Part shown: positions 5,723-50,054 of the stretch, piece by piece
Layout: every line of letters starts with the position of its first letter
How positions within the stretch are numbered: the stretch's first letter is position 1
NCBI GenBank assembly: GCA_965223665.1
Contig: OZ245011.1
Coordinates: 1,888,001 to 1,952,000 of the forward strand
DNA from: Nitrospinaceae bacterium
GTDB taxonomy: Bacteria > Nitrospinota > Nitrospinia > Nitrospinales > Nitrospinaceae
Direction of reading: 5' to 3'
DNA: 64,000 nt
Program-made: the position numbers and the translations under genes
The notes under the pieces: generated by a model
What the model was told of the DNA's origin: nothing
What the model saw: the letters and a program-made list of their open reading frames with translations, nothing else
The model's database searches: none

Positions 5723-7455
5723 TCAATACCCTAGCGTGAGGGCGCCGGGTTTGCGTGGATCCGACGCGCCAAAAAACATTCCCTTCCGGCGAACAATCGA
5801 TTGCGACGATCCCATTGCGTTTTTCTCCACGAGGTTGTGCCCCATTTGTTTTAAGCGTTCCAGCGTGTCGGGACTCAACCCCTTCTCCACCCGAAGCTCA
5901 TCCGGAATCCACTGATGATGAATCCGCCTCGCATGTGTGGCTTCGGCGATGTTCATTTTATGATCGATCACGTTAATGAGGATTTGCAACACGGTATTAA
6001 TAATGCGCGGACCTCCCGGACTGCCGGTCGCGAGAAACGGTTTACCATCTTTGAGAACAATCGTAGGTGACATGGAACTGAGCGGACGTTTTTTGGGGTG
6101 AATCGCGTTGGCTTCTCCGCCAACCAGACCAAAGCCATTCATCGCTCCCGGTTTGGCAGAAAAATCATCCATCTCATTATTCATTAGAATCCCGGTACCT
6201 TCTGCAACAATACCGGACCCGAAACTAAAGTTAAGGGTGGTGGTATTGCTCACCACATTACCGAACCGGTCCATCACCGTAAAGTGCGTGGTCTCATCGC
6301 TCTCATAACGGCTTGGCGTTCCCGGACGAATTTCAGATGAAGGTCGCGCCTTCTGTGGGTCAATAGTACTCCGCAGTTGCCGCGCATACGTTTTGGAAAG
6401 CAGTCCTTTCGTCGGAACCGTCCACCAGTCGGGATCTCCTAAAAATTTACTGCGATCGGCAAATGCCAGCTTCATCGATTCCGCCATCAGGTGCAATACG
6501 CTGGAACTGTTCGGTCCCATGGCTGCCAAAGGATAACCCTCCAGAATGTTCAGCATTTGAATGATGTGAATGCCGCCGGAACTGGGAGGCGACATGCCGA
6601 TGACTTCATAACCGCGATACGTGCCGCGAACCGGCTCTCGAACCGCAATGTGATAATTTTTCAGATCTTCTTTGGTGATCAGTCCCCCGTTCTTTTCCAT
6701 AGAAGCTACAATTTTGTCGGCAACAGCTCCTTCATAAAACGCTTTCGGTCCATGCTCCGCAATCTGCCGTAACGACCACGCCAGATCCTTAAACACCATG
6801 CGTTCTCCCACCTGATACACCGATCCATCCTCTTTATAAAAATCCGGCGCGTTTCCGGCCACCGCTGCAATCGTTTTTTCCCATTGGAAAACGTGAACAC
6901 ATGATCTTTGTTAACTACGAGACCTTCCTCAGCGATTTTAATGGCAGGCGCCATGACACGCTTCAGCGAAAACGTCCCGTACTGTTTTAAAACATGCGCC
7001 AGCCCGGCCACCGAACCCGGAACTCCTATCGCCAGGAAACTGTATTGAGATAATTCGGAATCGACCTGCCCTTCTTTGTTCACGTACATATCCACCGTAG
7101 CTTTGAGCGGTGCCATCTCACGGTAATCGATTGCCACAGTTTTGCCGGTGTCCGCGAGGTGCACCAGCATGAATCCTCCACCACCCAGATTGCCCGCGCG
7201 TGGTAACGTGACCGCCAGCGTGAACGCCACTGCCACCGCCGCATCCACCGCGTTGCCACCGTCCTTAAGAATTTGCACACCGACCCGAGTGGCGATGGCC
7301 TCCTGACTGGCCACCATTCCCTGTGCCCCCGTAACCGGATGCACCACATCCTTCTGCGAATAAATCGCACTTTGCTGAGCCTCTGCAGAAACCGAAAACA
7401 AAAATGTAAAATGAAGCGCTAAAAAAACATCAAATATGGTTTTAGAACGAATCAT
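5723..7455 (-). pseudogene. ggt: Gamma-glutamyltranspeptidase split by a 1-nt frameshift (pseudogene or sequencing error)
   Basis: 5' ORF has a signal peptide, GGNAVDAAVA, GGGGF and IDYRE; 3' ORF has PPSSGG, ETTHF (autocatalytic Thr), LNNEMDDFS-like, RPLSSMSP, GSPGG and GASDPR; frames join at the A5 run 6838-6842. Confidence 0.9.
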
Positions 7456-7625
7456 AGTATTTCTCAAACGAAGTTCATACTACCCATGCAACCAAAACAG
7501 GCTTTCAATTAATAACACAAAATCACACCTTTTTAATTATATGGTTTTTTAGTTGGGCGTTGTATAAGTTTATTAGGGGTGTTAAGATTGCACCACAACT
7601 TTCCTCTTCTATATAGGAGGCACTT

Positions 7626-8114
7626 ATGTCAGGCCGAAATATTTTTATTCTTATTTTGGTGGCTATCGCAGCAGTGACTGGGTTGTTTTTGTCCGGGACC
7701 ATAGACCGTGTATTGTTTAAAAAAAGCGACGATGGGACCACTCTGGAAATCGATAAAAAATCTACGGAACCCGCAAACCACAAAGCCCCAACTTCAACTC
7801 CATCGACATCCACAACAATCACCAGTGAAAACAATGAAGGCATCATTCAGTCCGGCTCCGGTAACCAGGCCACCATCACTAACAACGATAATATAAACAT
7901 CGGAGATAACACCTCCGGCAACATTAATATTAACGGCAATCAAGTGGGAGACATCACTGGCAATACAGGCTCGATCCATGTGGGCGACAGCTTTGGCGGT
8001 GACAAAGTGATGGGCGACAAAATTGTCGGCGACACTCACATCAGCGGTAACGAAGTCAACGTGATTGAGGAAAACAAAGGCACTGTCAACATTGGTGGAA
8101 TTGAGTCTAAGTAA
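7626..8114 (+). CDS. Membrane-anchored protein with Thr/Ser linker and Asn/Gly/Asp/Ile-rich pseudo-repeat tail
   Basis: AGGAGG RBS; hydrophobic N-terminal helix; repeats such as INIGDN, GDITGN, GDKVMGDKIVGD. Confidence 0.8.
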   Translation: MSGRNIFILILVAIAAVTGLFLSGTIDRVLFKKSDDGTTLEIDKKSTEPANHKAPTSTPSTSTTITSENNEGIIQSGSGNQATITNNDNINIGDNTSGNININGNQVGDITGNTGSIHVGDSFGGDKVMGDKIVGDTHISGNEVNVIEENKGTVNIGGIESK

Positions 8115-8133
8115 TCCAGGGAACCACTGAATA

Positions 8134-9561
8134 ATGAAATCGTTACCACTCACTTCCTTATATATATACCTGCTCATCAGTTTGGTCTTATGTGGAACGC
8201 CGGGCCTTGGTCACGCTGAGGATAACTTCACTCAAATTAAAACACTGGCCAGCAAAAATATAAACAACGAAGGGATAATTCAGGAAGGAAAAGGCAACCA
8301 AGCGACCATTCACAATTTCAATGTAGACACACCGGAAGGATACGAAAGAAGTCCTGAAAAAAAAGAGAATAATCGCAACCGCGGGATCATTCAGCAGGGG
8401 GATTACAACATTGCCACGATTTACAATTTTAATATTGGAATCTCAGTCGAGGATTACGAGAAGGGTCTTCGCATTCAGCAAGCTAACTTTCAACAGCAAC
8501 TCAAAAACCTTCGACTCGACGAAAAACAAAAAGAATTAGAACTAAACGCAAGTTTGATGGCAGTCAACAAAAAACTATCCAATGTAAAAGCATCCTATGA
8601 CCAAACAGTTATCGAATTAAAAGCCACCAATAATGAATTGATCAAATTTAAAGATCAGTTATCCACCGAGGAATTAATCACCGCCCATGAAGCCTTGGAA
8701 AAGGGCGATACCCAACTAGCCAAGAAATTATTACAAACTGTAGCGGATAAAAGAGAAATACTGATTGAAGAAACCGCCAGCATTTATTTTCGACTGGGAA
8801 AACTGAATTTTGATGAAGTAAATTATCGTGAATCGTTGGAGAACTTTGAACGCGCGTCACAACTGGCCCCTGGAAACGCAGGGTATTTAAACGATACCGG
8901 CTTTCTATTTTACACCCTGGGTAATTTCGATGAAGCCATTCATTATTATGAAAAAGCCCTTAAGAAAGATTTTAAAAATTTCGGAGAGGATCATCCTCTG
9001 ATTGCCACACTTTGGAACAATCTGGGATTAGCCTGGCACAGCAAAGGCTACTATGATCAAGCCATTGAGTATTATAAGAAAGCCTTGGAAAGCGATCTCA
9101 AAAACTTTGGTGAGAATCATCCCAACGTTGCCATACGTTGGAACAACCTGGGATCGGCCTATGAGAGAAAAGGAGAACCCAATAGAGCAATTGAGTATTA
9201 TAAGAAAGCCCTGGCTATCAATCTCAAAATCTTCGGTAACACTCACCCCAATGTTACCACCAGTTGGAACAATCTGGGAACAGCCTGGCAGGCCAAAGGT
9301 AACCACGACAAAGCCATTGAGTATTTCGAAAAAGCCTTGGAAAACAATCTCAAAATCCTTGGCGCTGGGCACCCGCATGTAGCAGGAGCATGGAATAATC
9401 TGGGGGTAGCATTTGGTTTTAAGGGCGACTATGATAAAGCCATTTCTTATTTCGAAAAAGCCCTGCAAGCAGTCCAAAAAATGGGCTTAGAACATCGAGC
9501 TCTATTAATTAAACAAAACATCGAATTTTTAAAACTTCTAAGTTTAATTCCTCCGGAATAA
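8134..9561 (+). CDS. Secreted TPR-repeat protein with N-terminal curlin-like motifs and coiled coil
   Basis: Signal-peptide-like N-terminus; two GIIQxGxxNxATIxN motifs; coiled-coil segment; 42-aa repeats HPxVAxxWNNLGxAWxxKGxYDxAIEYYxKAL. Confidence 0.9.
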   Translation: MKSLPLTSLYIYLLISLVLCGTPGLGHAEDNFTQIKTLASKNINNEGIIQEGKGNQATIHNFNVDTPEGYERSPEKKENNRNRGIIQQGDYNIATIYNFNIGISVEDYEKGLRIQQANFQQQLKNLRLDEKQKELELNASLMAVNKKLSNVKASYDQTVIELKATNNELIKFKDQLSTEELITAHEALEKGDTQLAKKLLQTVADKREILIEETASIYFRLGKLNFDEVNYRESLENFERASQLAPGNAGYLNDTGFLFYTLGNFDEAIHYYEKALKKDFKNFGEDHPLIATLWNNLGLAWHSKGYYDQAIEYYKKALESDLKNFGENHPNVAIRWNNLGSAYERKGEPNRAIEYYKKALAINLKIFGNTHPNVTTSWNNLGTAWQAKGNHDKAIEYFEKALENNLKILGAGHPHVAGAWNNLGVAFGFKGDYDKAISYFEKALQAVQKMGLEHRALLIKQNIEFLKLLSLIPPE

Positions 9562-10183: not shown

Positions 10184-11497
10184 ATGAAAAGGCTACTTCT
10201 TGCCTCACTATGGGCTATTCTCATTCTATTTTGCAGCGAAACATCTTTCGCTAGAACCGTCACTTTAATCACGCCGAAAGATACGTACGTCCGTTCTACA
10301 GCTCCCACAAAAAACTACGGCACCGAACCGCGAATGATTGTCGACGGAGTCAGCCTGGACCCGGAGACCCGAACGTTTGGCGAAGTCGCCGGCTTGTTGC
10401 AGTGGGATGTGTCTTCCATTCCGGTGTACTCCATTGTCGACTCAGCTAAAATCACTCTGCGTTTGTACAATTCCAGTTCCGGCGTGTATCACATTTTTGA
10501 ACAAATCGGATCGTGGAGCGAAAAGTCCGTAACCTGGGATGATTTTTCTCCGGGAAGTACTCCCCTCGGTTCCATCCCGGCTAATCGAAGCGGTCCGGTT
10601 ACCATTGAACTTAACGATGACGGGATAGCTCTGGTGCAAGGTTGGATCGATGGGACTTTAGACAATAACGGTTTCGCCCTTCGCGCCGGGGGCACCAATG
10701 ACGGCATCGGATTGCACACCAAGGAAGGTTCCATCGATTTTGCAAAACTTAAAATTTCGTTTTCAGATGGGCCCGCCACCATTGAACAACTTCAGGGAGA
10801 AATCAATCGACTGAGTGCACTGCTTGCCGGACTTCGCAGAAAGGGAGACACGCTTATTTTCGAAGGCATGAACGTTCAAATTGTGAATGGGTATGGCGCC
10901 ACCAACGGACACCCCGGACAAAAAGACGAACTGTCACCTTTAAAAACCAATGTCAATGGATTAGGCAACCTCATTGTCGGTTACAACGAAAAAATAGATA
11001 CAGATTCGTTCGAGGATTTCTTAGACGAGGATTCTGTGTTGTCGGACAAAACCGGCTCTCATAATATTATCGTAGGACATGGCCACAATTATTCAAGTTT
11101 CGGCGGCCTGGTGGCCGGCTGGGATAATATTGTATCGAGTCCATATTCTACAGTGAGCGGAGGCAAATACAATCACGCCAGCGAATTCTGCTCTACGGTC
11201 GGTGGCGGATTCCTCAACGTCGCCAGTGGAGATTACTCGGCGGTCAGTGGCGGTTACCAGCAGATTGCCAGTGGAGACAACTCCAACGTGAGCGGAGGAT
11301 TCCGTAACAAGGCCACCGGATTTGCTTCGCATGTTAGTGGCGGATTTTCCAACATCGCCAGCGGGGAAAGATCGAGTATCAACGGAGGCATCGCCAACAA
11401 AGCCTTTGGAGAAAACTCTACCGTCAGTGGAGGCGGCCACCGGGAAGCCTCCGGAGAAAACGATTGGGTGGCCGGCAGTTTGTATGAGAAAGAATAG
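10184..11497 (+). CDS. Secreted DNRLRE-like domain protein, type A (coiled coil + NGLGNLIVGY module + 15-aa Gly/Ser solenoid repeats); paralog 1
   Basis: Signal peptide; DTYVRSTAPTKNYG, LQWDVSSIP, GIALVQGWIDG; 7 SxVSGGxxNxA-type units; ends DWVAGSLYE. Confidence 0.88.
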   Translation: MKRLLLASLWAILILFCSETSFARTVTLITPKDTYVRSTAPTKNYGTEPRMIVDGVSLDPETRTFGEVAGLLQWDVSSIPVYSIVDSAKITLRLYNSSSGVYHIFEQIGSWSEKSVTWDDFSPGSTPLGSIPANRSGPVTIELNDDGIALVQGWIDGTLDNNGFALRAGGTNDGIGLHTKEGSIDFAKLKISFSDGPATIEQLQGEINRLSALLAGLRRKGDTLIFEGMNVQIVNGYGATNGHPGQKDELSPLKTNVNGLGNLIVGYNEKIDTDSFEDFLDEDSVLSDKTGSHNIIVGHGHNYSSFGGLVAGWDNIVSSPYSTVSGGKYNHASEFCSTVGGGFLNVASGDYSAVSGGYQQIASGDNSNVSGGFRNKATGFASHVSGGFSNIASGERSSINGGIANKAFGENSTVSGGGHREASGENDWVAGSLYEKE

Positions 11498-11652
11498 TTT
11501 TGTTCCCTTCCCCGAACATAGTGTTTCCTTCCTTTTTCGACAAAAAGTTCTAAACCATTAAAAATCGCTAACATAGACCTGCCTTTTTCTTTACGATCCA
11601 GTTTGTACCGAAATCGGTTTTCCAATTACCCCCAATTTGCCCCCATCAAGTT

Positions 11653-11681
11653 TTGACAAAACCGGCTAAAGGGTATAAATT
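11653..11681 (+). promoter_or_regulatory. Sigma70-type promoter for paralog 2
   Basis: TTGACA-17bp-TAAATT about 50 bp upstream of ATG 11731. Confidence 0.6.
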
Positions 11682-11730
11682 TTGGCCAAATAACCAAATT
11701 TAATACAGTTTCTCACCGTGAGGAGGGGGC

Positions 11731-12957
11731 ATGAAACGAATTACATGTTTTTTAACTTTAATCGCATTGCTACTGACCAGTACATCTGCATGGGCGGTGG
11801 TAGATTCATTTTCCAGTCCGCAGGATAGTTACGTACGCCAAAGTTCTCCGGCCATGAATTATGGATCCGAAAATGTTCTTATCGCAGATGGTATCAGTCA
11901 GGATCCCGACAACGGATTGTACGGCGAAGTCGCAACACTTATCAAATGGGATCTATCCAGCATACCTTCTGGTTCTAATGTCACTGCTGCTTCCATCACT
12001 CTGGATTTTTTCAATTCCAGTGGCGGCACTTATAACATATTGCAACAGCTCAACGCCTGGAACGAAAACTCGGTGGACTTCACGGATTTATCCACTTCAG
12101 GCACAATCCGTGGAATCATTCCTGCTGGAAGCAGCGGCGTAGTCAAAATTCCTTTAAACGCCAGCGGGATCGCTTTAGTGCAAGGTTGGATCGATGGCAA
12201 CATTGACAATAATGGATTTGCTATTCGCACCTCCGGCACTAACGACAGTATTGGTATGGACTCGCGAGAATCTTCCGGAATGGCACCGACATTAGAAGTG
12301 GATTATGAAGGGGCTGTCCTGACCCTGGAAGAACTCACCGCCAAGGTTCGCGAATTTGAAGAACTCTTTGAAGGAATCACCCGATCCGGATCTAACATTT
12401 TTATCACCGGTGCCAATGTGCATATACGCAACGGCCTGGGATCAACAGATGGCAGCGATAGCTCCAATCCTCCACGAACCAATGGACTGGGGAATTTAAT
12501 TGTTGGTTATAATGAACCGCCTCCCTGCCCTCCGGCAACTATATGTTTGAATCGGCTCGGTTCGCACAATGTGGTCATTGGTCCCGAACACACCTATACC
12601 AGTTATGGAGGTTTGATAACTGGAGACCGAAACAGAATCACAGATATTTACAGTGTGGCGGTTGGAGGTTTTCTCAATCAATCCACCGGTGCTTATTCAG
12701 GCACGTTCAGTGGTTCCGGCAACCAGGCGACGGGAAATTTTTCCACAGTTACCGGTGGAGCCAGTAATACCGCAAGCGGCGGTACCTCTCATATCAGTGG
12801 CGGACGGCAAAACAACGCCACCGGTGGATTTTCCACTGTGAGCGGCGGACGTGAAAACACTTCTTCCGGAAACTCTGCAACCGTCGGTGGTGGATTTCAA
12901 CGAAGTGTTAACGGGTTCGACGACTGGAGAGCTGGCAGTTTATTTGAAACTCAATAA
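11731..12957 (+). CDS. Secreted DNRLRE-like domain protein, type A; paralog 2
   Basis: GAGGAG RBS; same architecture; 6 solenoid units; ends DWRAGSLFETQ. Confidence 0.9.
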   Translation: MKRITCFLTLIALLLTSTSAWAVVDSFSSPQDSYVRQSSPAMNYGSENVLIADGISQDPDNGLYGEVATLIKWDLSSIPSGSNVTAASITLDFFNSSGGTYNILQQLNAWNENSVDFTDLSTSGTIRGIIPAGSSGVVKIPLNASGIALVQGWIDGNIDNNGFAIRTSGTNDSIGMDSRESSGMAPTLEVDYEGAVLTLEELTAKVREFEELFEGITRSGSNIFITGANVHIRNGLGSTDGSDSSNPPRTNGLGNLIVGYNEPPPCPPATICLNRLGSHNVVIGPEHTYTSYGGLITGDRNRITDIYSVAVGGFLNQSTGAYSGTFSGSGNQATGNFSTVTGGASNTASGGTSHISGGRQNNATGGFSTVSGGRENTSSGNSATVGGGFQRSVNGFDDWRAGSLFETQ

Positions 12958-12970
12958 TTTGTTTTATCAT

Positions 12971-13006
12971 GGCAGACCCCGGTTCCTACCGGGGTCTGTT
13001 TTTTTT
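12971..13006 (+). terminator. Intrinsic terminator (type A family hairpin)
   Basis: GCAGACCCCGG-ttccta-CCGGGGTCTGT followed by a T run. Confidence 0.88.
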
Positions 13007-13178
13007 GTTTGATAAACCAACTCTCAGCTCCTGGAACCTGAGAAGGCTTCCAGGTTTTTTTGATGGCTGCCATGCCAATCCTTCCTTAAAAATATTATTC
13101 TTGTGACGAGCCCAGTGCATTTTCTTCTTGAACAGACTTAAGTATTTTTTCAAAGATTGTTTTACGGGTTTGGTCACA

Positions 13179-13206
13179 TTGACAAACCTTAGGAAAAGGT
13201 TATAAT
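13179..13206 (+). promoter_or_regulatory. Sigma70-type promoter for paralog 3
   Basis: Consensus TTGACA-16bp-TATAAT. Confidence 0.75.
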
Positions 13207-13334
13207 TTGACAAGCCCTGAAATTTAATATCGAGTCTAAAGCAGTTCTCATGAAATGTTGTTTAAGATGAATCTCTTTAAATATTTTCCTTTCAATTTTT
13301 TCAAATAACTAATCCTTATTCAGTGGGGGGAACT

Positions 13335-14648
13335 ATGAAAAATAATATTAGAGCAATTCTAATTTTTTCATTTTTACTTTTAAGCGGTTACAGTTACGCA
13401 CAAACCACAGTGAGCTTTCAAGATGGGGTGTCACCCGATGCAGGGTACACCGGGACACAAGACAGTTATGGTCGGAGCACATCTCCCGGCGCAAACTATG
13501 GCAGTGACAATACTATAATTTCTGACGGGGTGGCGCAGGATCCGGATAACGGTCTTTTTGGAGAAGTTGCCGGAATCGTCAAATGGGACATTTCATCAAT
13601 TCCGGCATCCGCCACCGTAACCAGCGCTTCGATAACGGTGAATCTGACCAATAACAGTTCTGGCGCTTATAACTTTTTGCAGCAAACCGGAGCCTGGTCG
13701 GAAGGTTCAGTTACCTGGAGCGACTTTAATTTTGGAGGCGTTATTCTGGGTACCATTCCCGCGTTTGCTTTTGGCAGCACGACGGTCAATTTAAATGCTT
13801 CAGGGATTGCACTGGTTCAAGCCTGGGTCGATGGATCAATAGCTAATGATGGAATCCTGGTTCGGCATGGAGGGACTAACAACAGTATTCAATTTGAATC
13901 TACAGAGTCAGGCGGTAACTCCCCCATATTAGAAGTAACTTATACAGGAGGAACCCAAACCTTGGAAGAGCGAGTGGCGTTTTTAGAAGCTCTTTTGGCC
14001 GGCGTGATGCGCAATGGAAATAAGATAGTGTTCGATGGATTGAATGTTCAAATTACTAATGGTTTAGGTGCCACTAATGGCAATCCAGGTAATCCGGACA
14101 GCGACACCACCACTGAAGTTAATGGTTTAGGTAATTTGATTGTGGGTTATGACGAAGACATTAATCCTTACAATGTAGATGGAACACCGTTATCAAACAA
14201 AAGTGGTTCACACAATGTGATCATCGGTCACGGGCACAACTACAGCAGTTTCGGTGGCTTTGTGGTTGGCCAGGATAACATAATCAGCGATTCCTACGCC
14301 AGCGTCAGTGGGGGAAATCAAAATACTGCAAGTGGAATCTGGTCCAGCGTCAGTGGTGGATTTTTCAATACTGCAAGCGCAAGCAGGTCCAGCGTCAGCG
14401 GGGGAGAACGAAATACGGCAAGTAGCCCTCAGTCCAGCGTCAGTGCTGGACTTCGCAATACTGCAAGTGGAATCGGTTCCAGTGTCAGTGGGGGAATAGA
14501 TAATACTGCAAGTGGACCTAATTCCAGCGTTAGTGGGGGAGATAATAATACTGCGAGCGGAACAGAATCCACCGTGAGTGGAGGGGAAAGCAGATCGGTT
14601 ATTGATACCCATGACTGGAGAGCAGGCAGTTTATTTGAAAATAATTAA
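13335..14648 (+). CDS. Secreted DNRLRE-like domain protein, type A; paralog 3
   Basis: ATG 13335 behind GGGGG; TTVSFQDGVSPD N-terminal extension; 7 solenoid units; ends DWRAGSLFENN. Confidence 0.9.
   Translation: MKNNIRAILIFSFLLLSGYSYAQTTVSFQDGVSPDAGYTGTQDSYGRSTSPGANYGSDNTIISDGVAQDPDNGLFGEVAGIVKWDISSIPASATVTSASITVNLTNNSSGAYNFLQQTGAWSEGSVTWSDFNFGGVILGTIPAFAFGSTTVNLNASGIALVQAWVDGSIANDGILVRHGGTNNSIQFESTESGGNSPILEVTYTGGTQTLEERVAFLEALLAGVMRNGNKIVFDGLNVQITNGLGATNGNPGNPDSDTTTEVNGLGNLIVGYDEDINPYNVDGTPLSNKSGSHNVIIGHGHNYSSFGGFVVGQDNIISDSYASVSGGNQNTASGIWSSVSGGFFNTASASRSSVSGGERNTASSPQSSVSAGLRNTASGIGSSVSGGIDNTASGPNSSVSGGDNNTASGTESTVSGGESRSVIDTHDWRAGSLFENN
14298..14612 (+). repeat. 45-bp coding tandem repeat (7 units)
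   Basis: CCAGCGTCAGTGG...AATACTGCAAGTGGA-like units recur with 45-bp period (14299, 14344, 14389, ...). Confidence 0.85.
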
Positions 14649-14662
14649 TTTAATTTTTTCAT

Positions 14663-14697
14663 GGCAGATCCCGGTTCCTTCCGGGGTCTGTCTTTTT
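14663..14697 (+). terminator. Intrinsic terminator (type A family hairpin)
   Basis: GGCAGATCCCGG-ttcctt-CCGGGGTCTGTC followed by TTTTT; nearly the same as the hairpin at 12971. Confidence 0.88.
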
Positions 14698-14855
14698 ATT
14701 TTCGCATAAAAACTTTTATGATAGTCGGTGATTGACCGGCGAGGAGTTTACAAACAAAATATATCGCTCGCGGGATAATTCCTACCAAAAACCTGCGTTT
14801 TCTTCTCCCTTTCTTTTAGATTGATCCGAATTAACCTTTTTCCGTTTCAAACCGG

Positions 14856-14883
14856 TTGATTTTGAAGTGAACAAATCTATAAT
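14856..14883 (+). promoter_or_regulatory. Sigma70-type promoter for paralog 4
   Basis: TTGATT-16bp-TATAAT. Confidence 0.55.
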
Positions 14884-15068
14884 GAGCCATCCTAAAAATT
14901 TGTCTGGCTCAAAGATTATTTAAATCGGTTTTGGTTTTTATAATTAGTCTCAGTTCAATCTAAATCTTTAATGAGAGGTCTTCCTTTGGGTTCAGACGTC
15001 CGTTGTTTGAAGATTTTTCTATTTCAGACCTCTCTCAATAATCTGACTTCCAAAGGGGGGGGCGTTTC

Positions 15069-16217
15069 ATGAAAAAAATATTCTTTATTTTATCTATCTG
15101 TATATTCGTTTTCAGCCATGAGGCATTCGCGGTTACCGACACCTTTACCAACCCGGAGGACAGTCATGGACGCAGTACGTCACCGACCTCAAATTTCGGA
15201 GCTGGATCCAGTGTGATCGCCGATGGAGTGGCGCAGGACCCGGCAAACAGTTTATACGGTGAAATCGCAGGTATTCTCAAATGGGACATCTCATCCATTC
15301 CCAATACAGCCGCAGTAACCAGTGCATCCATCACCATCAACCTCACCAACAACAGTTCCGGTGATTACAACTTTCTTGAGCAAACCGGAGCCTGGACCGA
15401 GGGCACCGTGACATGGAACGACTTTAATTTCGGCGGCACCGTCTTAGGAACTATTCCGGCATTCGCTTCGGGCAACACGACCATCAATCTTAATGCCAGT
15501 GGGGTGGCTTTGGTTCAGGCCTGGGTCGATGGCTCGACTCCTAACGATGGTCTGCTCGTGCGCACCGGCGGTACCAACAATAGTATTGCATTCGATTCCA
15601 GTGAGTCCGGCGGTTCCCCTGCGGTACTGGAAGTGACATATACCGGCGGAGCTCCCACATTAGAATCCTTACAGGCAGAGATCGATGCATTGAAAGCCAT
15701 ATTAGCCGGAGTGACACGCAACGGAAATAATATTGATTTTGATGGAGTGAATGTTCGAATCCGCAATGGCCTTGGCGCCACCAACGGCAACCCGGCGGAC
15801 CCCAATAGCGAGACCGGTACCAATGTGAATGGGCTTGGCAATTTGATCGTGGGTTACAATGAAAACCATAAAGATTGCACTGGGACCTTTTGTTTTCTGG
15901 ATAAATTAGGATCTCATAATGTAGTGATCGGCCATGGTCAATCCTATACCAGCTATGGGGGGTTGGTGGCAGGTCAGGACAACCTGATATCAGCACCTTA
16001 CGCCAGTGTGAGTGGAGGATTTGAAAATCGGGCTACCGCATTTTTTTCAAGTGTGAGTGGTGGAGGTGACAATGAAGCCAGTGATTCTATGGCGAGTGTA
16101 AGCGGAGGATATGGTAACGAAGCCAGTGGATTTCGATCCACTGTCAGTGGAGGGGCGCACCGATCGGCCACGGATTTTGAGGACTGGGTCGCCGGCAGTT
16201 TAATAGAAGATAATTAA
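15069..16217 (+). CDS. Secreted DNRLRE-like domain protein, type A; paralog 4
   Basis: Signal peptide ending AFA; same architecture; 4 solenoid units; ends DWVAGSLIEDN. Confidence 0.9.
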   Translation: MKKIFFILSICIFVFSHEAFAVTDTFTNPEDSHGRSTSPTSNFGAGSSVIADGVAQDPANSLYGEIAGILKWDISSIPNTAAVTSASITINLTNNSSGDYNFLEQTGAWTEGTVTWNDFNFGGTVLGTIPAFASGNTTINLNASGVALVQAWVDGSTPNDGLLVRTGGTNNSIAFDSSESGGSPAVLEVTYTGGAPTLESLQAEIDALKAILAGVTRNGNNIDFDGVNVRIRNGLGATNGNPADPNSETGTNVNGLGNLIVGYNENHKDCTGTFCFLDKLGSHNVVIGHGQSYTSYGGLVAGQDNLISAPYASVSGGFENRATAFFSSVSGGGDNEASDSMASVSGGYGNEASGFRSTVSGGAHRSATDFEDWVAGSLIEDN

Positions 16218-27495: not shown

Positions 27496-27666
27496 CCCTA
27501 CTAAAAAATTTTTCAAAGATTCATTTCAAAGAGGCGAATGGCCGTTCCTATTTTAGCTGGCTTAAAAGGGTTTTCATCCACATCAAAATTTGAATAGCCT
27601 CTTTAAATATTTTCAACCGTTCAAAAGTGATTGAAGAAAATTAAAAATTTCTTCGGGGGGAATCAC

Positions 27667-29214
27667 ATGCAAAGGGCATTTATATTATTCGTGGCTTTGA
27701 TGTTGCCATTCGTTTTTAACTCGCCGGCACTTGCCATCACCGATACATTTTCTAACCCCGACGACAGTTATGGCCGAAGTACCTCCCCCTCCACAAACTT
27801 TGGAACCGAAGCAAGTGTCATTTCCGATGGAGTGGCACAAGATCCATCCAATGGAAATTTTGGAGAAGTGGTTGGAATTTTAAAATGGAATATTTCCAGC
27901 ATACCGGCAACGGCAACTGTGTCCAGTGCTTCCATTACGGTAAATCTCACCAACAACAGTTCCGGGGATTATAATTTTTTAACTCAAACTGGAGCCTGGA
28001 CCGAAGGAAGTGTCGCCTGGAACAACTTTAATTTTGGCGGAACCGTTTTAGGGAGCATTCCCGCGTTTGCTTTCGGAAGCACCACCGTCGTCTTGAATGC
28101 TTCGGGAATTGCCCTGATTCAGGGTTGGGTGGACGGTTCCATTTCTAATGATGGAATTCTTATTCGCACCAGCGGCACCAACAACAGCATTGCCTTTGAC
28201 TCCAAAGACTCCTCTGGTTCACCTGCAACTTTAGAAGTGGTTTACACCAATGACCCCATTGGAGATGGAGACCCACCGGAAATAGATAGTGTGATTGTGG
28301 CCGATGATGCATGCGGCACAGGATGCGACACTTTAACAATATTGGGTTCAAACTTAAGGGATATCAGCAACGTGAACGACATTCCCGATGTCCGGCTGGC
28401 AGGGTCTTCAGCCCTTCCTTTGAATGCAGGGGATCCCGGAACCACCGAAACGGTCATCGTGGATCTTTCAGGAGTCAATCATCCGGGGGACGGCAGTCAC
28501 CGATTAAATTTTTCCAATTTGAGTGGAGACACTTCGATCAGTGTCACCATTGGTGCGCAAGGACCTGCGGGACCGCCAGGACCTCCCGGGGATTCTTTTG
28601 CCGGTCTAAGCTGTACAGCGAACTCCGTCTGTGGTAACGGCGTTGTAGAAGCGGGGGGACCCCTTCTGGGATTTTCCGCTGAGGGGAATCTGATTTGCCA
28701 AAATCAGGAAGAGTGTGATGACGGCAACACTATTAATTTCGACGGATGTGAACCCAACTGCACCTTATGTGGAGCCGATACCTTTGAGCCTAACGACACC
28801 CAGGCGACTGCATTTTTTCTTGGCACCATCACCGATGCAGACGACGATGGAGATTCCATATTAGGAACGCTGAATCCTATAGAAGAGGAAGATTGGTATT
28901 CCGTCGCCATCACCGAGGACAATCCCCTCGCTACCATTGACCCTCGATTATCCTGGTCGGTGGAATTGACTGCGTGTGTTTATTATCAGTGCACCCAGGG
29001 AACCACCGAAGTCACCTGCAATTCGGGAACCGCCGATGTAGCCCCCAACGGCGCTTTGGGTTGCTGCAGCATCAGTGGACCTTCAGGAACTACCCAACAA
29101 ATTCAACCGAACTGCCTGGGCGGAATCGACGATAGCGGCACCGCATACTTCCGAGCACTAAAAACCCCTGTCCAGACCCAGTGTCGGCCCTTCATTTTGG
29201 ATTGGACCCCCTAA
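27667..29214 (+). CDS. Secreted DNRLRE-like domain protein, type D (IPT-like domain + short collagen + Myxococcus Cys-rich repeat + Cys-rich/PPC-like domain); paralog 5
   Basis: Family N-domain; PEIDSV...LTILGSNL; GAQGPAGPPGPPG; CGNGVVE...EECDDGN...DGC; DTFEPND...EEDWY. Confidence 0.88.
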   Translation: MQRAFILFVALMLPFVFNSPALAITDTFSNPDDSYGRSTSPSTNFGTEASVISDGVAQDPSNGNFGEVVGILKWNISSIPATATVSSASITVNLTNNSSGDYNFLTQTGAWTEGSVAWNNFNFGGTVLGSIPAFAFGSTTVVLNASGIALIQGWVDGSISNDGILIRTSGTNNSIAFDSKDSSGSPATLEVVYTNDPIGDGDPPEIDSVIVADDACGTGCDTLTILGSNLRDISNVNDIPDVRLAGSSALPLNAGDPGTTETVIVDLSGVNHPGDGSHRLNFSNLSGDTSISVTIGAQGPAGPPGPPGDSFAGLSCTANSVCGNGVVEAGGPLLGFSAEGNLICQNQEECDDGNTINFDGCEPNCTLCGADTFEPNDTQATAFFLGTITDADDDGDSILGTLNPIEEEDWYSVAITEDNPLATIDPRLSWSVELTACVYYQCTQGTTEVTCNSGTADVAPNGALGCCSISGPSGTTQQIQPNCLGGIDDSGTAYFRALKTPVQTQCRPFILDWTP

Positions 29215-29382
29215 CCTTACTTTTCAACCGTACATTCCCTTCCTATCTCCTTGTAAAACTAAGGATGACAAAAAATACATTTGAGCAATGACAGACTCTT
29301 TATCTCCTTTGGGATATTATTTTTTCGAATTAATACTTGGTTAATTTGGAGAGTTCAAAGATTTCGAATTGAGGGGAACGTT

Positions 29383-31131
29383 ATGGAAAACCAATGGAAT
29401 TCTTTTGTAGAGCTGTTACAGGTGAGAGCACAAGTCCAACCCAATGATCGCGCTTTTACTTTTTTAGATGAAAAAGGAAATGAAGAAGCCATCCTTACCT
29501 TTGAAGAACTCGATCGCCAGGCAAAAGCAGTGGCAGGGTATCTTCAATCGACGACCCAACCCGGGGAACGCGTTTTACTGTTTTTCCCACCGGGTCTGGA
29601 TTTCATCGTAGGATTCTTTGGTTGTTTATACGCTCGCTTAATCGCAATTCCGGTGTTTCCGGGAAAACGAGAACAATCATTAAACAATATTCAAAGAATT
29701 ATTTCAGATGCTCAGGTCTCCGTTTGCCTGACCAACAAATCTTTTTACAAGAAAATTAATCACTTTCATTTTAAAAATACGGACTTGGTAAACCTTCCCT
29801 GGAAGTGCGTGGACGACCTGGCTTTCCAATGTGAATATGATTGGAATCAACCCCTCATTCAAAAAACCGATTTGGCATTTCTTCAATATACTTCAGGATC
29901 TACCGGCAACCCTAAAGGTGTGATGGTGAGCCACCAGAATATTTTGCATAACTCTGAAATGATTCGCGTGGGATTTGGGCACACACAAAAAACTGCATTT
30001 GTAGGATGGCTGCCTTTATTTCATGACATGGGATTGATCGGAAATGTTTTACAACCTTTATATTTGGGAATTCAAAGCGTCATGATGGCCCCATCCACTT
30101 TTGTATCCAACCCTTACCGTTGGCTGCAGGCGATTTCCAAATACAGAGCCACTACCAGTGGCGGACCTAACTTCGCGTTTGATCTTTGTGCGCATACGGT
30201 CACTCCGGAAGAAGTCGCCACTCTGGACCTTAGCAGTTGGGACAATGCTTTTATAGGAGCGGAACCCATTTTCTCCTGCACCATGAAAAATTTTTACAAT
30301 GTTTTTAAATCCTGTGGGTTCAAATGGAATTCTTTTTATCCTTGTTATGGAATGGCCGAGGCCACCTTGTTTATCTCCGGAGCAAACAAAAGCAATCCAC
30401 CAACTTTACTGACCCAAACCACCAGCGAGTGCAATGACAATTCGGACCCATCGGAAATTTCGGAAATTATTGAAACCGAGAAAACCTATATTGGTTGTGG
30501 CCGAAGCTGGCTCGACCAGGAATACTTAATTGTCAATCCGGATACCTCGATTCCCTGTGATGAGAATGAGGAAGGAGAAGTTTGGGTTCGAGGAAACAAT
30601 GTGGCTCAAGGGTATTGGAATCAACCGGAACAAACTAAAAAAACTTTTCACAATTATATCCTGGGCAATGAAGCCGGTCCTTTTTTACGCACAGGAGATT
30701 TAGGATTTATTAATAACGGTGAGCTATTCATCACGGGAAGGTTAAAAGATATTATCATTATCAACGGTCGTAATTACTATCCTCAAGATATAGAAAAAAC
30801 TGTTGAGAAGTGCCATCCCTCGATACGCATCCACAGCACCGCGGCTTTTTCAATTGAACAAAAAGCCAGCGAACGCCTGGCCATTGGATGCGAAGTCAAA
30901 AGAGAATTTGTAAGAAATCATAATCTGGAAGAAATCGTTTCATCCGTGCGCTCTTCCATAATGGAAAACCACGCGCTCGACACCACGGCGGTGGTTCTCC
31001 TGAAACCGGGAAGTATTCCTAAAACTTCCAGCAATAAAATCAGAAGAAGTCTTTGTAAACAGTATTTCAACAATGGTGAATTCAAGAAAGTAGGTCAATG
31101 GGAAGAGCGGGCACAAGCCGTTCCTCTATAA
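29383..31131 (+). CDS. Fatty acyl-AMP ligase (FAAL)
   Basis: LQYTSGSTGNPKGV, WLPLFHDMGLIG, GGPNFAFD, CYGMAEATL, LRTGDLG, GRNYYPQDIE, IPKTSSNKI; no fused ACP. Confidence 0.92.
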   Translation: MENQWNSFVELLQVRAQVQPNDRAFTFLDEKGNEEAILTFEELDRQAKAVAGYLQSTTQPGERVLLFFPPGLDFIVGFFGCLYARLIAIPVFPGKREQSLNNIQRIISDAQVSVCLTNKSFYKKINHFHFKNTDLVNLPWKCVDDLAFQCEYDWNQPLIQKTDLAFLQYTSGSTGNPKGVMVSHQNILHNSEMIRVGFGHTQKTAFVGWLPLFHDMGLIGNVLQPLYLGIQSVMMAPSTFVSNPYRWLQAISKYRATTSGGPNFAFDLCAHTVTPEEVATLDLSSWDNAFIGAEPIFSCTMKNFYNVFKSCGFKWNSFYPCYGMAEATLFISGANKSNPPTLLTQTTSECNDNSDPSEISEIIETEKTYIGCGRSWLDQEYLIVNPDTSIPCDENEEGEVWVRGNNVAQGYWNQPEQTKKTFHNYILGNEAGPFLRTGDLGFINNGELFITGRLKDIIIINGRNYYPQDIEKTVEKCHPSIRIHSTAAFSIEQKASERLAIGCEVKREFVRNHNLEEIVSSVRSSIMENHALDTTAVVLLKPGSIPKTSSNKIRRSLCKQYFNNGEFKKVGQWEERAQAVPL

Positions 31132-31193
31132 GAACGAACATACAAACTCGTTGAAAATTTCGAGTTGACTTAAAAGTGGGGAGAAAACTTTAA

Positions 31194-34154
31194 ATGAAAA
31201 ACAAACAGGATTATCATTCCTATTGCAAACCCAAGCTAGCTGAACTGTTGTCCGCTCTCAAGCTGGACATATGCGCAAAGTCTGCGCAGGGAAATTATAT
31301 TCAGGACGAGTCCAACCATCAATACCTTGACCTGGTTAGTGGATTTGGCTCAGCGATTTTAGGCCACAACCATCCGGACATTGTTAAAACGGCAACGGAT
31401 TCTTTACAAAATAATCTTCCTGTTAATGTTCAGGGAACCGTGCGCAGTTCGTCCGCAAAGCTTGCGAAACGGTTGAATGAATTACTGCCAACCAACAGCG
31501 AAGCGTATTGCGTCAATTTTTCAAACAGTGGAACCGAAAGTATTGAAGCGGCCATCAAGCATGCGTATAAAGTCCACTTTGAAAAAGTCCAACGCAAATA
31601 TGAACATCTAAGTCGCGTACTCAACGATTTCTACTATAAAGTTGAAAACATGCCGAACCGCCCGGAATTACCCGGGAAGAATAAGAGCCTGGTCGACTTT
31701 CGCGATGACCTGGACGAATACAATTTAGAGCAGTTTGAAACGTTTCAAAATAATCCTGTCATGATTGGCTTTAAAGGCGGGTTTCACGGAAAAACAATGT
31801 CCAGCCTGAAAGTGACATTCAACAAATCGTTCCGGGAAATTTTTGAAGGTTTATCATCCATCAAACCGGTTTTTATTGATCCCAAAACTCCGGAACGCAT
31901 TGAGGAAATTCGAGACGAACAAACCTGTCTGTTTCTTTATCCGGAATTGGTCGGAAACAAAATTGAATTGCGCACCACTAAAATCACCAAAGTGATCGGT
32001 CTGATTTTTGAAATCATCATGGGAGAAGGCGGTATCATTCCCTTGAGTGACCGCACTCTCGAATTTTTAGCCAACGAGCATGAGCGCCTTGAAATTCCTT
32101 ATATCATTGATGAAATTCAAACCGGTTGTGGTCGTACGGGAAGGGTCTTTGGTTTTGCAGACACAGCCCTTTCCAAAATTTCACCGGAATACATCACACT
32201 CAGTAAAGCGCTGGGTGGCGGCATTTCTAAAATCGGTGCGACTCTGATCCGTAAAAATATTTATGAGCATGACTTTGGAATTTTACACACTTCCACGTTT
32301 GGCGAAGATGACTTATCCAGTGAAGTGGCCTTAAAGACCCTGAACTTGCTTACAGAAAATAACAACGCCCAGTTAAAAGATGTTAAGGAAAAAGGTCAAA
32401 CTATTATAGATGGACTCAGAGATTTACAAAGTGAGTTCCCGGAAATTATTAAAGATGTACGCGGACGCGGGTTAATGATTGGTTTGGAATTTACCACATT
32501 GGAAGACCGCTCTCCCTTCTTTCGAGCTTCAGGGAAACAAGGCGTGCTTTCACTTTTAATCGCCAGCTACTTATTGCACTACCATCATATTCGAGTGCTG
32601 GCTCCCTTAACCAATATGCTGAAGGGGAATCCCGGTAAAGTTCGTTTATCCATTATCCGCATTCAACCTCCGCTCACGATCACCCATGAGGAAATCCAGA
32701 GATTGATTTCCGGGTTAAGAGAAGTTTGCAACATTATTCAAAATAATAATGAGTATTGTTTGATCGGTCATTTAATCGGCGCATCTTTAAGTTCCGAAGA
32801 ACGTAAAAACTGTGCCTCCTTTGAAGCTTACTGGCCCATCGTCGATCAGCCACGTCCTATGGATGCCCGCGCCGGGTTTGTGGTCAACCCGACCAATTTA
32901 ACCGTCCTCGCTGATTACTACTTCCCATCGTTTAAAGAATATTCCTGGGAAAAGAAAAATTTGCTCTCATGGTGGAATTGCGTCAGTCGATTCCTGGAGC
33001 CGGTCCATATCAGAAATGAGTACATTACTTCTAATGAATTCACCATTCAACTCAGCCTGGTTTTTGTTCCATACCTTCCTGAATATATTAACGCGAACAG
33101 AAAAGACCGTATTTTAGCAAAGGAAATGAGTGATAAGGTTCAGGATGCGGTGACGGTGGCCCGTGAATTGGGGGATGACAATATTCCTGTTTCTATCGTT
33201 GGTCTGGGAGGTTACACCTCCACCATCACTAAAAATGCATTGACGATTAATGATTATGAAATTCCTGTCACTACGGGAAATGCTTATACGACGGGCCTTG
33301 CTATTCAAGGTGTGATTTACGCGGCACAGGAAAAAAACATCGATATGAGTAAGGCGAAATTGGCCGTGGTCGGTGCCGGTGGAAATATTGGTTCCATTTT
33401 AGCTCAAATTTTAATTCCACGTGTGGAACAACTGGTATTAATCGGTAGCCAAAAACCAGGTAGTTTGGAACGTCTGCAAAACACACGTCAGCTATGCCTG
33501 CAGGAATTGTTGAAAAATATCCAGGCTGAAAAGCATTCCGGACAAAGTTTTGAAAATACGCAAATCCGGGGAGTGGGTTACCAGATTTATGAATACCTGG
33601 AACGGAATCATTCCGAAACAACGGAAGCCATCAGAAAAGGATTGGTCAGCGATACAATAACGCCCGATCAAATGGAAGCTTTTGAAAAAGAGTTATTCGA
33701 AGGTCCTTCCGGAATACGAATTGACCTATCGACATCCATTCAAGATTCTTACGATTGCGATATTATTATTTTATCAACCAACTCAGAAAACCCGGATCTC
33801 ATTAAGCCGGAATTCTATAAACACAATGCCATCTTATGTTGTGTTTCCCTACCTTCGAATCTCAGCAAAAACTTTAAGAACAGCAACGGTCAGTTAGCCT
33901 TCGATGGCAGTTTAGCCCGGTTACCGGAAGGATCGGAAATCAACTTCGTCGGGTTGCCCAGGCAAGGCCTGTCCTTCGGCTGTTTATCCGAAACCTTGGT
34001 CCTTGCTTTCGAAGGCCATAATCACTCCTTCAGTAAAGGGGAAATTAAATCTCAACAGGTTTACGAGATTATGGAGAAAGGTCTATTAAACGGCTTCGAT
34101 TTAGGAAGTTTAAAGTTTAACGAAAAAGTATTACTGGAAAGAAGTCCTCATTAA
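31194..34154 (+). CDS. Class III aminotransferase fused to acyl-ACP-reductase-like domain (TamH-like)
   Basis: N-domain: YLDLVSGFG, NSGTESIEAA, FHGKT, DEIQTGCGRTG, LSKALGGG (PLP Lys); C-domain: GLGGYTS, TTGNAYT, VVGAGGNIG, FGCLSETLVLAFEG. Confidence 0.88.
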   Translation: MKNKQDYHSYCKPKLAELLSALKLDICAKSAQGNYIQDESNHQYLDLVSGFGSAILGHNHPDIVKTATDSLQNNLPVNVQGTVRSSSAKLAKRLNELLPTNSEAYCVNFSNSGTESIEAAIKHAYKVHFEKVQRKYEHLSRVLNDFYYKVENMPNRPELPGKNKSLVDFRDDLDEYNLEQFETFQNNPVMIGFKGGFHGKTMSSLKVTFNKSFREIFEGLSSIKPVFIDPKTPERIEEIRDEQTCLFLYPELVGNKIELRTTKITKVIGLIFEIIMGEGGIIPLSDRTLEFLANEHERLEIPYIIDEIQTGCGRTGRVFGFADTALSKISPEYITLSKALGGGISKIGATLIRKNIYEHDFGILHTSTFGEDDLSSEVALKTLNLLTENNNAQLKDVKEKGQTIIDGLRDLQSEFPEIIKDVRGRGLMIGLEFTTLEDRSPFFRASGKQGVLSLLIASYLLHYHHIRVLAPLTNMLKGNPGKVRLSIIRIQPPLTITHEEIQRLISGLREVCNIIQNNNEYCLIGHLIGASLSSEERKNCASFEAYWPIVDQPRPMDARAGFVVNPTNLTVLADYYFPSFKEYSWEKKNLLSWWNCVSRFLEPVHIRNEYITSNEFTIQLSLVFVPYLPEYINANRKDRILAKEMSDKVQDAVTVARELGDDNIPVSIVGLGGYTSTITKNALTINDYEIPVTTGNAYTTGLAIQGVIYAAQEKNIDMSKAKLAVVGAGGNIGSILAQILIPRVEQLVLIGSQKPGSLERLQNTRQLCLQELLKNIQAEKHSGQSFENTQIRGVGYQIYEYLERNHSETTEAIRKGLVSDTITPDQMEAFEKELFEGPSGIRIDLSTSIQDSYDCDIIILSTNSENPDLIKPEFYKHNAILCCVSLPSNLSKNFKNSNGQLAFDGSLARLPEGSEINFVGLPRQGLSFGCLSETLVLAFEGHNHSFSKGEIKSQQVYEIMEKGLLNGFDLGSLKFNEKVLLERSPH

Positions 34155-34176
34155 TCATTTTTACATCGGGAATGTC

Positions 34177-36021: not shown

Positions 36022-36055
36022 GTGCTAATGTAACCTTTTTAATACACACATTATT

Positions 36056-36853
36056 ATGAAAACAAAAATCAGTTATCTATTATCAGGAATGCTTCTTATC
36101 CTTCTATTCAATGGCACCCATGCCGTATCCAAAAACAGTACGGACAAAGGGAACCAAGTGGTTCAGGCTGTGGATAACCACGAAGCAGGTTATATCAATT
36201 TAAAGTCGGATGTCACGATGATCCTTGAGGATAAAAAAGGCAAAACACGCAAACGGTTTTTTAAATACACGATGCTGGAATCTGAACCGCTGGGGGATAA
36301 ACGAAAATTTGTCTTTGAACGCCCGCGTGATATTAAAGGCACTGCGGTTCTGATCCATTCCAAAGTTGTGGAAGATGATGCGCAATGGATTTTTCTGCCT
36401 GCGTTTAAACGAGTCAAACGAATCTCCAGCACCAACAAAAGCACTCCCTTCATGGGAAGCGAGTTCAGTTATGAAGATTTATCTTCCCAGGAGCTGGAGA
36501 AATATGAAAACCACTATGTCCGCCACGATGCCTGTGACGACAAAGAATGCGATGTGATCGAACGCGTCCCAAATTTTCCTCACTCGCTTTACAGCAAGCT
36601 GGTGGTTTATGTGGACAAGAAGGATAACCGCTATCGAAAAATTATTTACTTTGATAAAAAAGGGAAAAAGATTAAAACTCAAACTCTGAGTGATTATAAA
36701 TTGTATTCCGATCGTTACTTGCTACCGAACAAAATGGTAATGGTGAATCATAAGAATGGAAAGAAAACCACCATGCTTTGGGAAGACATCAAGTTAAAGA
36801 CAAACATAGTGAAAAGACATTTTAATGTGTCCGCTTTGAAGCGATCGCATTAA
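36056..36853 (+). CDS. LolA-like outer-membrane lipoprotein-sorting protein
   Basis: Signal peptide; PRDIKGT, DDAQWIFLPAFKRVKRI, FMGSEFSYED. Confidence 0.9.
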   Translation: MKTKISYLLSGMLLILLFNGTHAVSKNSTDKGNQVVQAVDNHEAGYINLKSDVTMILEDKKGKTRKRFFKYTMLESEPLGDKRKFVFERPRDIKGTAVLIHSKVVEDDAQWIFLPAFKRVKRISSTNKSTPFMGSEFSYEDLSSQELEKYENHYVRHDACDDKECDVIERVPNFPHSLYSKLVVYVDKKDNRYRKIIYFDKKGKKIKTQTLSDYKLYSDRYLLPNKMVMVNHKNGKKTTMLWEDIKLKTNIVKRHFNVSALKRSH

Positions 36854-36863
36854 CAAGGAGGCA

Positions 36864-36904
36864 GATGTGCTCCCCCTTTCATGAAGGGGGCTGGGGGGAT
36901 TTTT
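36864..36904 (-). repeat. REP-like repeat, short form
   Basis: Reverse complement AAAATCCCCCCAGCCCCCTTCATGAAAGGGGGAGCACATC. Confidence 0.8.
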
Positions 36905-36952
36905 CCTTAGTTACTTTTAAATTGTTAACATGACTGAACCGCGACTCCAATT

Positions 36953-44350: not shown

Positions 44351-44439
44351 ATGTGACAAGTCGCATTTGTAGAATAGGATAAATAGAGTCATTTAATTTA
44401 ATGAATTCATTTCATTTTTAATCAGAGGAAATAAAAAAT

Positions 44440-44464
44440 GCCCTCCCTGAATTTCAGGGAGGGC
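44440..44464. terminator. Bidirectional terminator between convergent paralogs 6 and 7
   Basis: GCCCTCCCTGAA-t-TTCAGGGAGGGC with A run 5' and T run 3'. Confidence 0.85.
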
Positions 44465-44483
44465 TTTAAGTTTTGCAGTTAAA

Positions 44484-46058: not shown

Positions 46059-46148
46059 CTTTCTCTCCTCAGATAATAAATAATTTCAACTCGAATGGGA
46101 TACTACCCTGACTCTATACGGTTTCGAACCCGATCTCTTTTAGCGAGG

Positions 46149-46177
46149 ATATTAGACAAAATGATCTGCGCTGTCAA
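46149..46177 (-). promoter_or_regulatory. Sigma70-type promoter for paralog 7
   Basis: Minus-strand TTGACA-17bp-TAATAT. Confidence 0.6.
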
Positions 46178-47549: not shown

Positions 47550-47646
47550 GACACTTATGTAAATTTTAATTTCAAATATTTTTCCCGGGCTGCCTTTAGG
47601 GCAGCCACACACATCACATTGTTTTAATCATGAACTGGAGGGAGTC

Positions 47647-48111: not shown

Positions 48112-48189
48112 AACAACACTAACAACAAGTAATCAATCTTAACTTCTGAATCACAAGAAGATCACACACTTCTTTATGGAGGGGATTCC

Positions 48190-50019: not shown

Positions 50020-50054
50020 TTTGCCTGGAGCATCATGCTGCTCCTCTTCCGATT

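Follow-up and report, generated by a model that had tools for sequence, protein, structure and literature searches.

In bacterial amyloid signaling, the pairs BASS1 to BASS10 combine Bell effectors with NACHT/NB-ARC receptors and also exist in all-in-one forms, according to the accessible part of the preprint describing them (bioRxiv 10.1101/2020.01.06.895854). The antiphage pair Bab/Agp of E. coli (BASS11) signals through amyloid in the cytoplasm from a TPR receptor devoid of an NTPase, Agp carrying GreA/B-C and PIN domains and Bab a helical Babybell domain, and there the mechanism works without an NLR; the main text of that report contains neither the term "signal peptide" nor "periplasm" (bioRxiv 10.1101/2024.11.07.622273). 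As far as the accessible text of these two preprints goes, amyloid signaling pairs are cytoplasmic, and a periplasmic pair would relocate a known immune trick. No exported amyloid pair is described in the accessible text of PMC8086366, PMC12261475, PMC13506858, PMC10907252 or PMC8195603, among which PMC10907252 predicts periplasmic sensors in other conflict systems. Likewise, we found no periplasmic amyloid signaling pair in the open-access literature; preprint supplements may hold related ones. Here we analyze a 64,000-nucleotide stretch of a Nitrospinaceae genome (the window), in which a preliminary description had singled out two adjacent genes, hereafter A and B, as a candidate extracytoplasmic amyloid module.

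Results

A collinear gene pair in a variable slot

As the preliminary description had it, the TPR gene B lies 3′ of the small membrane-protein gene A, on the same strand and collinear with it, at a spacing of 19 bp (Table 1). Both ORFs are intact, and A has a strong ribosome-binding site. The A/B junction reads identically in contigs of three sequencing runs (two samples, one study), which rules out a one-off assembly error behind the split; an assembly frameshift was rejected as its origin. The pair is flanked by a gamma-glutamyltransferase gene on one side and by CBM96 genes on the other; in a genome of the same genus (G012), both flanks are kept at 85-89% DNA identity with three unrelated genes between them, and the slot is a variable cassette. 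Among the neighboring genes in the window no defense gene adjoins the pair, PADLOC gave a generic TPR match only, no plasmid match was found, and a promoter/terminator scan stayed at chance level. Searches of a word-indexed protein database returned A and B alone, with neither a full-length homolog of A nor a close homolog of the N-terminal half of B.

Table 1. Features of the A/B locus, in window coordinates.
Feature	Position	Strand	Basis or remark
Shine-Dalgarno AGGAGG of gene A	7615-7620	+	sequence
Gene A ORF	7626-8114	+	162 aa; membrane helix, beta-hairpin (putative), linker, three motif modules
A residues 6-46, membrane helix (6-24) and putative beta-hairpin	7641-7763	+	profile homology, AF2
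Ser/Thr/Pro-rich linker, A 47-68	7764-7829	+	sequence
M1 in A, residues 69-86	7830-7883	+	common to A and B only
Module M2, A 104-132	7935-8021	+	common to five signal-peptide-bearing paralogs
Module M3, A 139-157	8040-8096	+	common to an exported TPR paralog and the small secreted L001 protein
Gene B ORF	8134-9561	+	475 aa; predicted signal peptide, two M1, helical hairpin, TPR array
Predicted Sec signal peptide of B, 1-28, end G-H-A	8134-8217	+	hydrophobicity; cleavage site by eye
First M1 in B, residues 44-61	8263-8316	+	motif sequence
Second M1 in B, residues 81-98	8374-8427	+	continues into the GI(T/S)L-type junction of the family
Long helices, B 105-170, coiled-coil-like, family-defining	8446-8643	+	AF2 pLDDT >90; profile
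TPR array, mostly 42-residue kinesin-light-chain-like repeats (126-nt)	8665-9543	+	domain search, AF2

Around the pair, the gamma-glutamyltransferase gene (5723-7467, minus strand) is broken by a frameshift into two overlapping ORFs, its G012 counterpart (L043) being a single frame there. Secreted proteins with CBM96-like domains, often followed by a coiled segment and then by Ser/Gly-rich adhesin-like repeats, are greatly expanded (10184-16217, 27631-29214, 43505-52834 and 62520-63743). Genes for a fatty-acyl-AMP ligase, an aminotransferase-reductase fusion, an acyl-CoA synthetase, an outer-membrane sorting-like protein and an RND/MMPL exporter (29281-39253) form, in our annotation by eye, a possible lipid biosynthesis cluster.

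A motif shared by A and B

The 18-residue motif M1 occurs once in A and twice in B, with the positions and sequences first noted. The pattern N.GI.Q.G..N.A has three matches among the six-frame ORFs of the 4.35-Mb genome, all of them in A and B. Between M1 of A and the first copy in B, 15/18 residues and 36/54 nucleotides are identical, and 9 of the 15 codons for identical residues differ synonymously (pS 0.97, pN 0.16); over all 11 motif comparisons, made in windows picked for peptide likeness, pS was 0.58-1.14 and pN 0.12-0.33. These values indicate that the peptide itself has been kept under purifying selection while synonymous sites became saturated, as the preliminary description had proposed from the synonymous differences, and recent DNA copying was rejected as the source of the shared motif. 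The local alignment of A(56-162) with B(29-103) scored 76, a value equaled by 0/5000 shuffles of A, and the next-best of 9639 genome ORFs reached 54.

Among 119 other genomes of the phylum M1 had no convincing match (best partial E 0.002), and exact DNA-pattern scans gave 0 hits in metagenomes and 0 in viruses; the scan negatives are weak, because the same kind of metagenome scan for the motif of another pair (L108, see below) also gave 0. The motif regions have N/Q/G/V/I fractions of 0.63 and 0.53 vs a background of 0.30 and contain no L in either protein, and A 69-162 is also free of P. AF2 monomers left the motif regions of both proteins unstructured, and a predicted complex of three B(36-165) with one A(60-104) scored 0.23 vs a mark of 0.32 and speaks neither for nor against a complex.

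The curlin repeat has the consensus QxGxxNxAxI, to which the motif had been likened. This likeness held in part, as a weak Pfam match on B of 14.6 bits vs a cut-off of 20.7, with none on A; no curlin repeat (PF07012) was matched elsewhere in the genome. Three CsgG-like matches (L172-L174, C1:1648891-1653706) are present in this genome without a curlin repeat match, at 1.65 Mb of the contig on which the pair lies at 1.896 Mb. Curli membership of A/B was rejected on the sub-cut-off score, the lack of a tandem array and the unlinked csgG-type genes.

Gene A resembles a split-off N-terminus with modules of other proteins

Pfam gave nothing above cut-off on A, and its single helix is accompanied by none of the BASS-type effector domains (Bell helical bundle, TIR, CHAT, hydrolase or cyclase). 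AF2, from a single sequence, placed a helix at 4-26 and was uninformative beyond it. The N-termini of ten relatives closely resemble A 1-50, having a membrane helix, then G-K-I and a short stretch of alternating pattern; judging from the sequence pattern, a beta-hairpin probably follows the membrane helix of A. Our first N-terminal profile, for which 0/1000 hairpin shuffles equaled the real score, was hand-picked and biased towards A, and the search was repeated with automatic clusters excluding A: one of five clusters matched A, and a cluster profile built without A ranked it 1st of 9639 ORFs (E 1.9e-4). In the protein database, the TM-hairpin profile retrieved 12 proteins, 11 of which were its own inputs and one a new fused protein. 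Within the phylum, the TM-hairpin module is fused to helices and TPRs in G022, G040, G061, G064 and G099; it is split in this genome (G000) and in G069, and in G038 a contig end interrupts it. Weak matches in G009 and G069:C26 were dropped on inspection as unrelated. The N-terminus of A is thus homologous to that of the fused family members, A and B being a one-gene protein in split form, with A likely its effector or adaptor.

Besides A, M2 is carried by three TPR paralogs, a caspase-like protein (PF00656) that retains its His and Cys motifs, and a small two-cysteine protein, and M3 by another TPR paralog and the small two-cysteine protein of L001; all these partners have signal-peptide-like N-termini. 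At L002:10052-13854 (C1:2057052-2060854), a TPR gene overlaps the caspase-like gene, both with signal peptides and both with M2, the caspase-like protein being a candidate periplasmic effector. At L001:2281-6175, the small secreted two-cysteine protein, which bears M2, M3 and a domain without Pfam match, is followed by two exported TPR genes, with M3 and M2, respectively; its relatives at L204 and L205 are also secreted and have an N/I/G-rich stretch of their own.

Gene B belongs to a large family of TPR proteins

The leader of B has a hydrophobicity of 2.61 over 12 residues, and codons 2-110 offer no alternative in-frame start except a TTG that lacks a Shine-Dalgarno. In the AF2 model (109 sequences), helices and TPRs have pLDDT >90 and the motif region <50, in line with the coiled coil and TPRs said to follow the motifs: helices are predicted at 105-170, then 42-residue TPRs. 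No NACHT/NB-ARC domain is among the matches listed for B (25 Pfam and 25 NCBIfam families), and the model is all helical/TPR, which agrees with the earlier claim that the pair has none. Sequence and fold searches of the PDB returned mostly generic TPR proteins. We regard B as the likely sensor and its long helices as a candidate oligomerization element.

This genome has 15 scored paralogs, B among them, and the family has a variable N-terminus, an Asn/Gly/Ile motif, a GI(T/S)L-type junction, a helical hairpin and TPRs, with no NTPase. A profile covering the helices and the first TPR matched 8236 cluster representatives at E<=1e-3, a set whose weaker tail may partly be generic TPR, and 1021 at E<=1e-10. 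Of the 149 top non-self matches, 138 were inspected at their N-termini, the other 11 being partial or repeat-only matches. In 94/130 members, N/Q/G/V/I/T make up half or more of the 22 residues preceding the junction, vs 12% of background windows. Family-wide, the slot ahead of the motif holds nothing, a signal peptide, one or three membrane helices, TIR or HetE-N; in 23 relatives selected for long N-termini, TIR_2 was found in 6 and HetE-N in 1. Four proteins (P0014, P0045, P0073 and P0099) consist of TIR, hydrophobic segment, helices and TPR, and the order TIR, hydrophobic segment, motif/helices, TPR would correspond to a Toll-like receptor layout in bacteria. In an Alteromonadaceae genome, two members (L093, L096) are fused to an N-terminal domain that by eye is HNH-like. 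The family occurs in 22/120 genomes of the phylum, with an expansion in one genus (15 and 11 copies), and judging from these profiles it represents a large, undescribed, NTPase-free receptor family. The preliminary description had noted neither the three modules of A nor this family and its expansion.

Split pairs and fused forms point to coupling through the motif

In G069, an independent split pair consists of a 104-aa protein with two motif copies and a TPR protein that starts with one, the two genes overlapping by ATGA; this receptor has no signal peptide. Because the G069 motif resembles M2, sequences like M2 also occur outside exported proteins. In the SAR324 genome G120 (L108), another independent split pair, of a different effector type, combines a membrane protein of three helices, with a 22-residue motif at its end, and a downstream TPR protein that has a clear signal peptide and its partner's motif (17/22 residues identical). 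The same genome also has a fused gene, with ~91% DNA identity to each half of the L108 pair, whose halves are joined within the motif and lack the motif core. The motif thus accompanies separate halves and is dispensable once they are fused, our strongest evidence that it is what couples the proteins; such evidence points to coupling and says nothing on amyloid vs soluble docking.

The proposed likeness in layout to amyloid signaling pairs was borne out, as split and fused forms exist, motifs match within pairs, and the one fused copy of G120 is without the motif. Conservation of the motif in homologous pairs failed for the M1 sequence and held for motif sharing, in pair-specific variants. Across eight neighboring pairs, the own partner of the receptor ranked first in 5/8 and second in 3/8, the multi-module A coming ahead of it each time; the permutation value, 1/40320, is overstated, the pairs having mostly been picked for a visible match. 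In G012, a helical partner adjoins a TPR protein, both with their own matched motif variant. Most family members lack a neighbor that shares their motif: 1 of 13 family genes had one in a first set, and in another set of 28 the pair already counted in the first was the single case. Among motif-sharing neighbors, those of G000 comprise NACHT, caspase and iSTAND proteins; one TPR gene that adjoins a NACHT gene in G000 has its counterpart in G012, where the NACHT partner is absent.

Two further arrangements were seen. An iSTAND protein with N-terminal GDK repeats, a MoxR-like ATPase and a long membrane TPR protein (L009:5436-11799) resemble a MoxR ternary conflict system that bears an amyloid-like tag. 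Helical 180-aa proteins with an N-terminal motif and an amphipathic C-terminal helix (L003:6557-7099 and L206:2205-2759) adjoin family TPR genes and are possible reverse-order effectors.

Which side of the membrane

Signal-peptide leaders are basic and hydrophobic with an A-x-A-type end, and under flank-charge rules the charge difference across a membrane helix indicates its topology. Judging export signals from hydrophobicity and A-x-A-type ends, we found such leaders on B and six paralogs. Modules M1-M3 were present in 7/7 signal-bearing and 0/10 cytoplasmic paralogs, in a table of 17 motif-bearing proteins out of 19 that excludes A itself and a paralog whose start is uncertain. Proteins without a signal-like N-terminus, which include NACHT and iSTAND proteins, mostly have GDK-type repeats. 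A single clade of signal-bearing TPR proteins was rejected (p-AU 2e-89, 16 rows), though swapping of one N-terminal cassette could also yield such scattered members.

The net charge difference across the helix is -1 in A vs +1 to +6 in the other 16 TM-hairpin proteins, as expected if A had flipped to face the periplasm. Counting K/R only, A has +2 and is still C-terminus-in, as are all 16 relatives. These relatives and the G069 pair, whose effector has a net charge difference of +5, look cytoplasmic. Since the two charge measures disagree, the topology of A is ambiguous, and we consider a periplasmic tail probable. The extracytoplasmic reading of the preliminary description finds support in B, in the L108 pair and in the modules of A, which sort with exported paralogs; it is weakened by the ambiguous topology of A and by G069, of the same effector type, which looks cytoplasmic.

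Discussion

We propose, tentatively and at somewhat short of an even chance for the model as a whole, that A and B are a split receptor-effector acting as an amyloid-type signaling pair at the periplasmic face of the inner membrane. B would be exported and bind a ligand through its TPR array; ligand-bound B would oligomerize via the long helices, lining up its M1 copies into a cross-beta template that could convert the A tail into a cross-beta assembly. The helix-hairpins of A would then cluster, causing a membrane lesion or arrest, or else M2/M3-tagged exported partners, such as the caspase-like protein at L002, would be recruited; these outputs are proposed because A has almost no cytoplasmic part. 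The parts of this model differ in probability: coupling of A and B through the motif is likely, amyloid-type coupling is slightly more likely than not, and a role of the pair in defense is probable. Purifying selection on the motif, the split and fused forms and the immune effector domains in the slot of relatives are what the sequences attest, and we infer export, oligomerization, an amyloid state, output and defense.

Another explanation, which we hold to be unlikely while giving it appreciable weight, is that a soluble beta-strand docking or short beta-helix joins A and B stoichiometrically and tethers the TPR protein to the membrane. All the split/fused and co-variation evidence speaks for coupling and not for a type of polymer, and the beta-prone stretch ahead of the helices, fused members included, suggests an ordinary oligomerization element; against docking, the length, composition, effector pseudo-repeats and gene layout match the amyloid motifs of BASS1, 3 and 11 in the published descriptions available, and both motif regions are predicted to be disordered alone. 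It is improbable, in our judgment, that the A tail keeps an ancestral cytoplasmic position and meets B only upon export failure, as a secretion guard, or is triggered through its GDK-type repeats by cytoplasmic paralogs that bear motifs. Such a topology would suit the K/R bias after the A helix, the C-in reading of 16/16 relatives, the G069 receptor without signal peptide and the scores of 50-88 of the GDK repeats of A vs most cytoplasmic paralogs; it fits poorly with the three modules of A, which match exported proteins best, with a net charge difference inverted in A alone, and with L108, a second pair of a membrane protein and a signal-peptide protein.

Slightly less probable still is a neutral relic, in which gene fission and cassette shuffling put a functionless low-complexity linker into both genes. 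The pair is private to this genome and sits in a variable slot, and its family is patchy and expanded in one genus, all of which a relic would accommodate, whereas the peptide kept over saturated synonymous sites, the intact ORFs with the strong ribosome-binding site of A, and the recurrence of split pairs with different matched motifs argue for function. To a nucleator/anchor pair of the curli kind, serving a fiber that displays TPR domains at the surface or in the periplasm, we assign the lowest probability: the curlin-repeat match of M1 (E 0.031, 12/34 positions), the CsgG-like genes and the export signals on the pair agree with it, set against a score below the curlin cut-off in a genome without curlin matches, CsgG-like genes ~240 kb away, one or two copies per protein, and relatives that carry immune effector domains.

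Beyond the split receptor-effector model, a periplasmic amyloid network is conceivable but doubtful, in which exported NTPase-free TPR sensors with one module each converge on multi-module partners like A; that A would thereby link the sensors both with a membrane lesion and with an exported caspase-like protease is equally doubtful. If true, this would place immune amyloid signaling beyond the cytoplasm and in a receptor family that is widespread yet undescribed (>1000 clusters at E<=1e-10), with Toll-like TIR-membrane-TPR proteins among its fused forms. With an exported version, a bacterium could detect attackers such as phage at the envelope, predators or injected toxins before they enter the cytoplasm, by a switch needing ~20 residues and no NTPase. 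Moreover, a multi-module effector would make cross-talk and specificity among amyloid tags addressable within one genome; the receptor family is large and unnamed, its split and fused genes are ready genetic material, and the peptides are short.

Comparison with known systems

Among described systems, as far as their published descriptions are accessible, A/B resembles BASS in being a close collinear pair with a ~20-residue N/Q/G/V/I-rich motif in the C-terminal part of the effector and at the N-terminus of the receptor, in its pseudo-repeats, TPR sensor and all-in-one counterparts, and in a motif that is also tied to TIR and caspase-like domains. It differs from BASS in that B has long helices instead of NACHT/NB-ARC, the effector A is a standing membrane helix plus hairpin and not a Bell bundle, an export signal is predicted, the receptor has two motif copies, and the effector has three different modules. 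Thus A/B would work like BASS, the motifs being compared by published description, yet is not a BASS member, because both defining domains (Bell and NACHT/NB-ARC) are absent.

With curli (CsgA/CsgB, PF07012; CsgG, PF03783), the pair has in common that its proteins are apparently exported and that M1 resembles one curlin repeat; unlike in curli, the motif is present in one or two copies attached to TPR or membrane modules, with no linked csgG. The fungal HET-S/NWD2 pair, as summarized in the accessible text of both preprints (bioRxiv 10.1101/2020.01.06.895854 and 10.1101/2024.11.07.622273), follows the same template-from-receptor logic and likewise has split and all-in-one forms, but it is cytoplasmic and relies on a NACHT receptor and a HeLo effector. 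Bab/Agp, within the published part available, likewise combines, through an amyloid motif, a TPR receptor lacking an NTPase with a small effector that targets membranes; unlike Agp, B ends after its TPRs at 475 aa, with no GreA/B-C or PIN domain.
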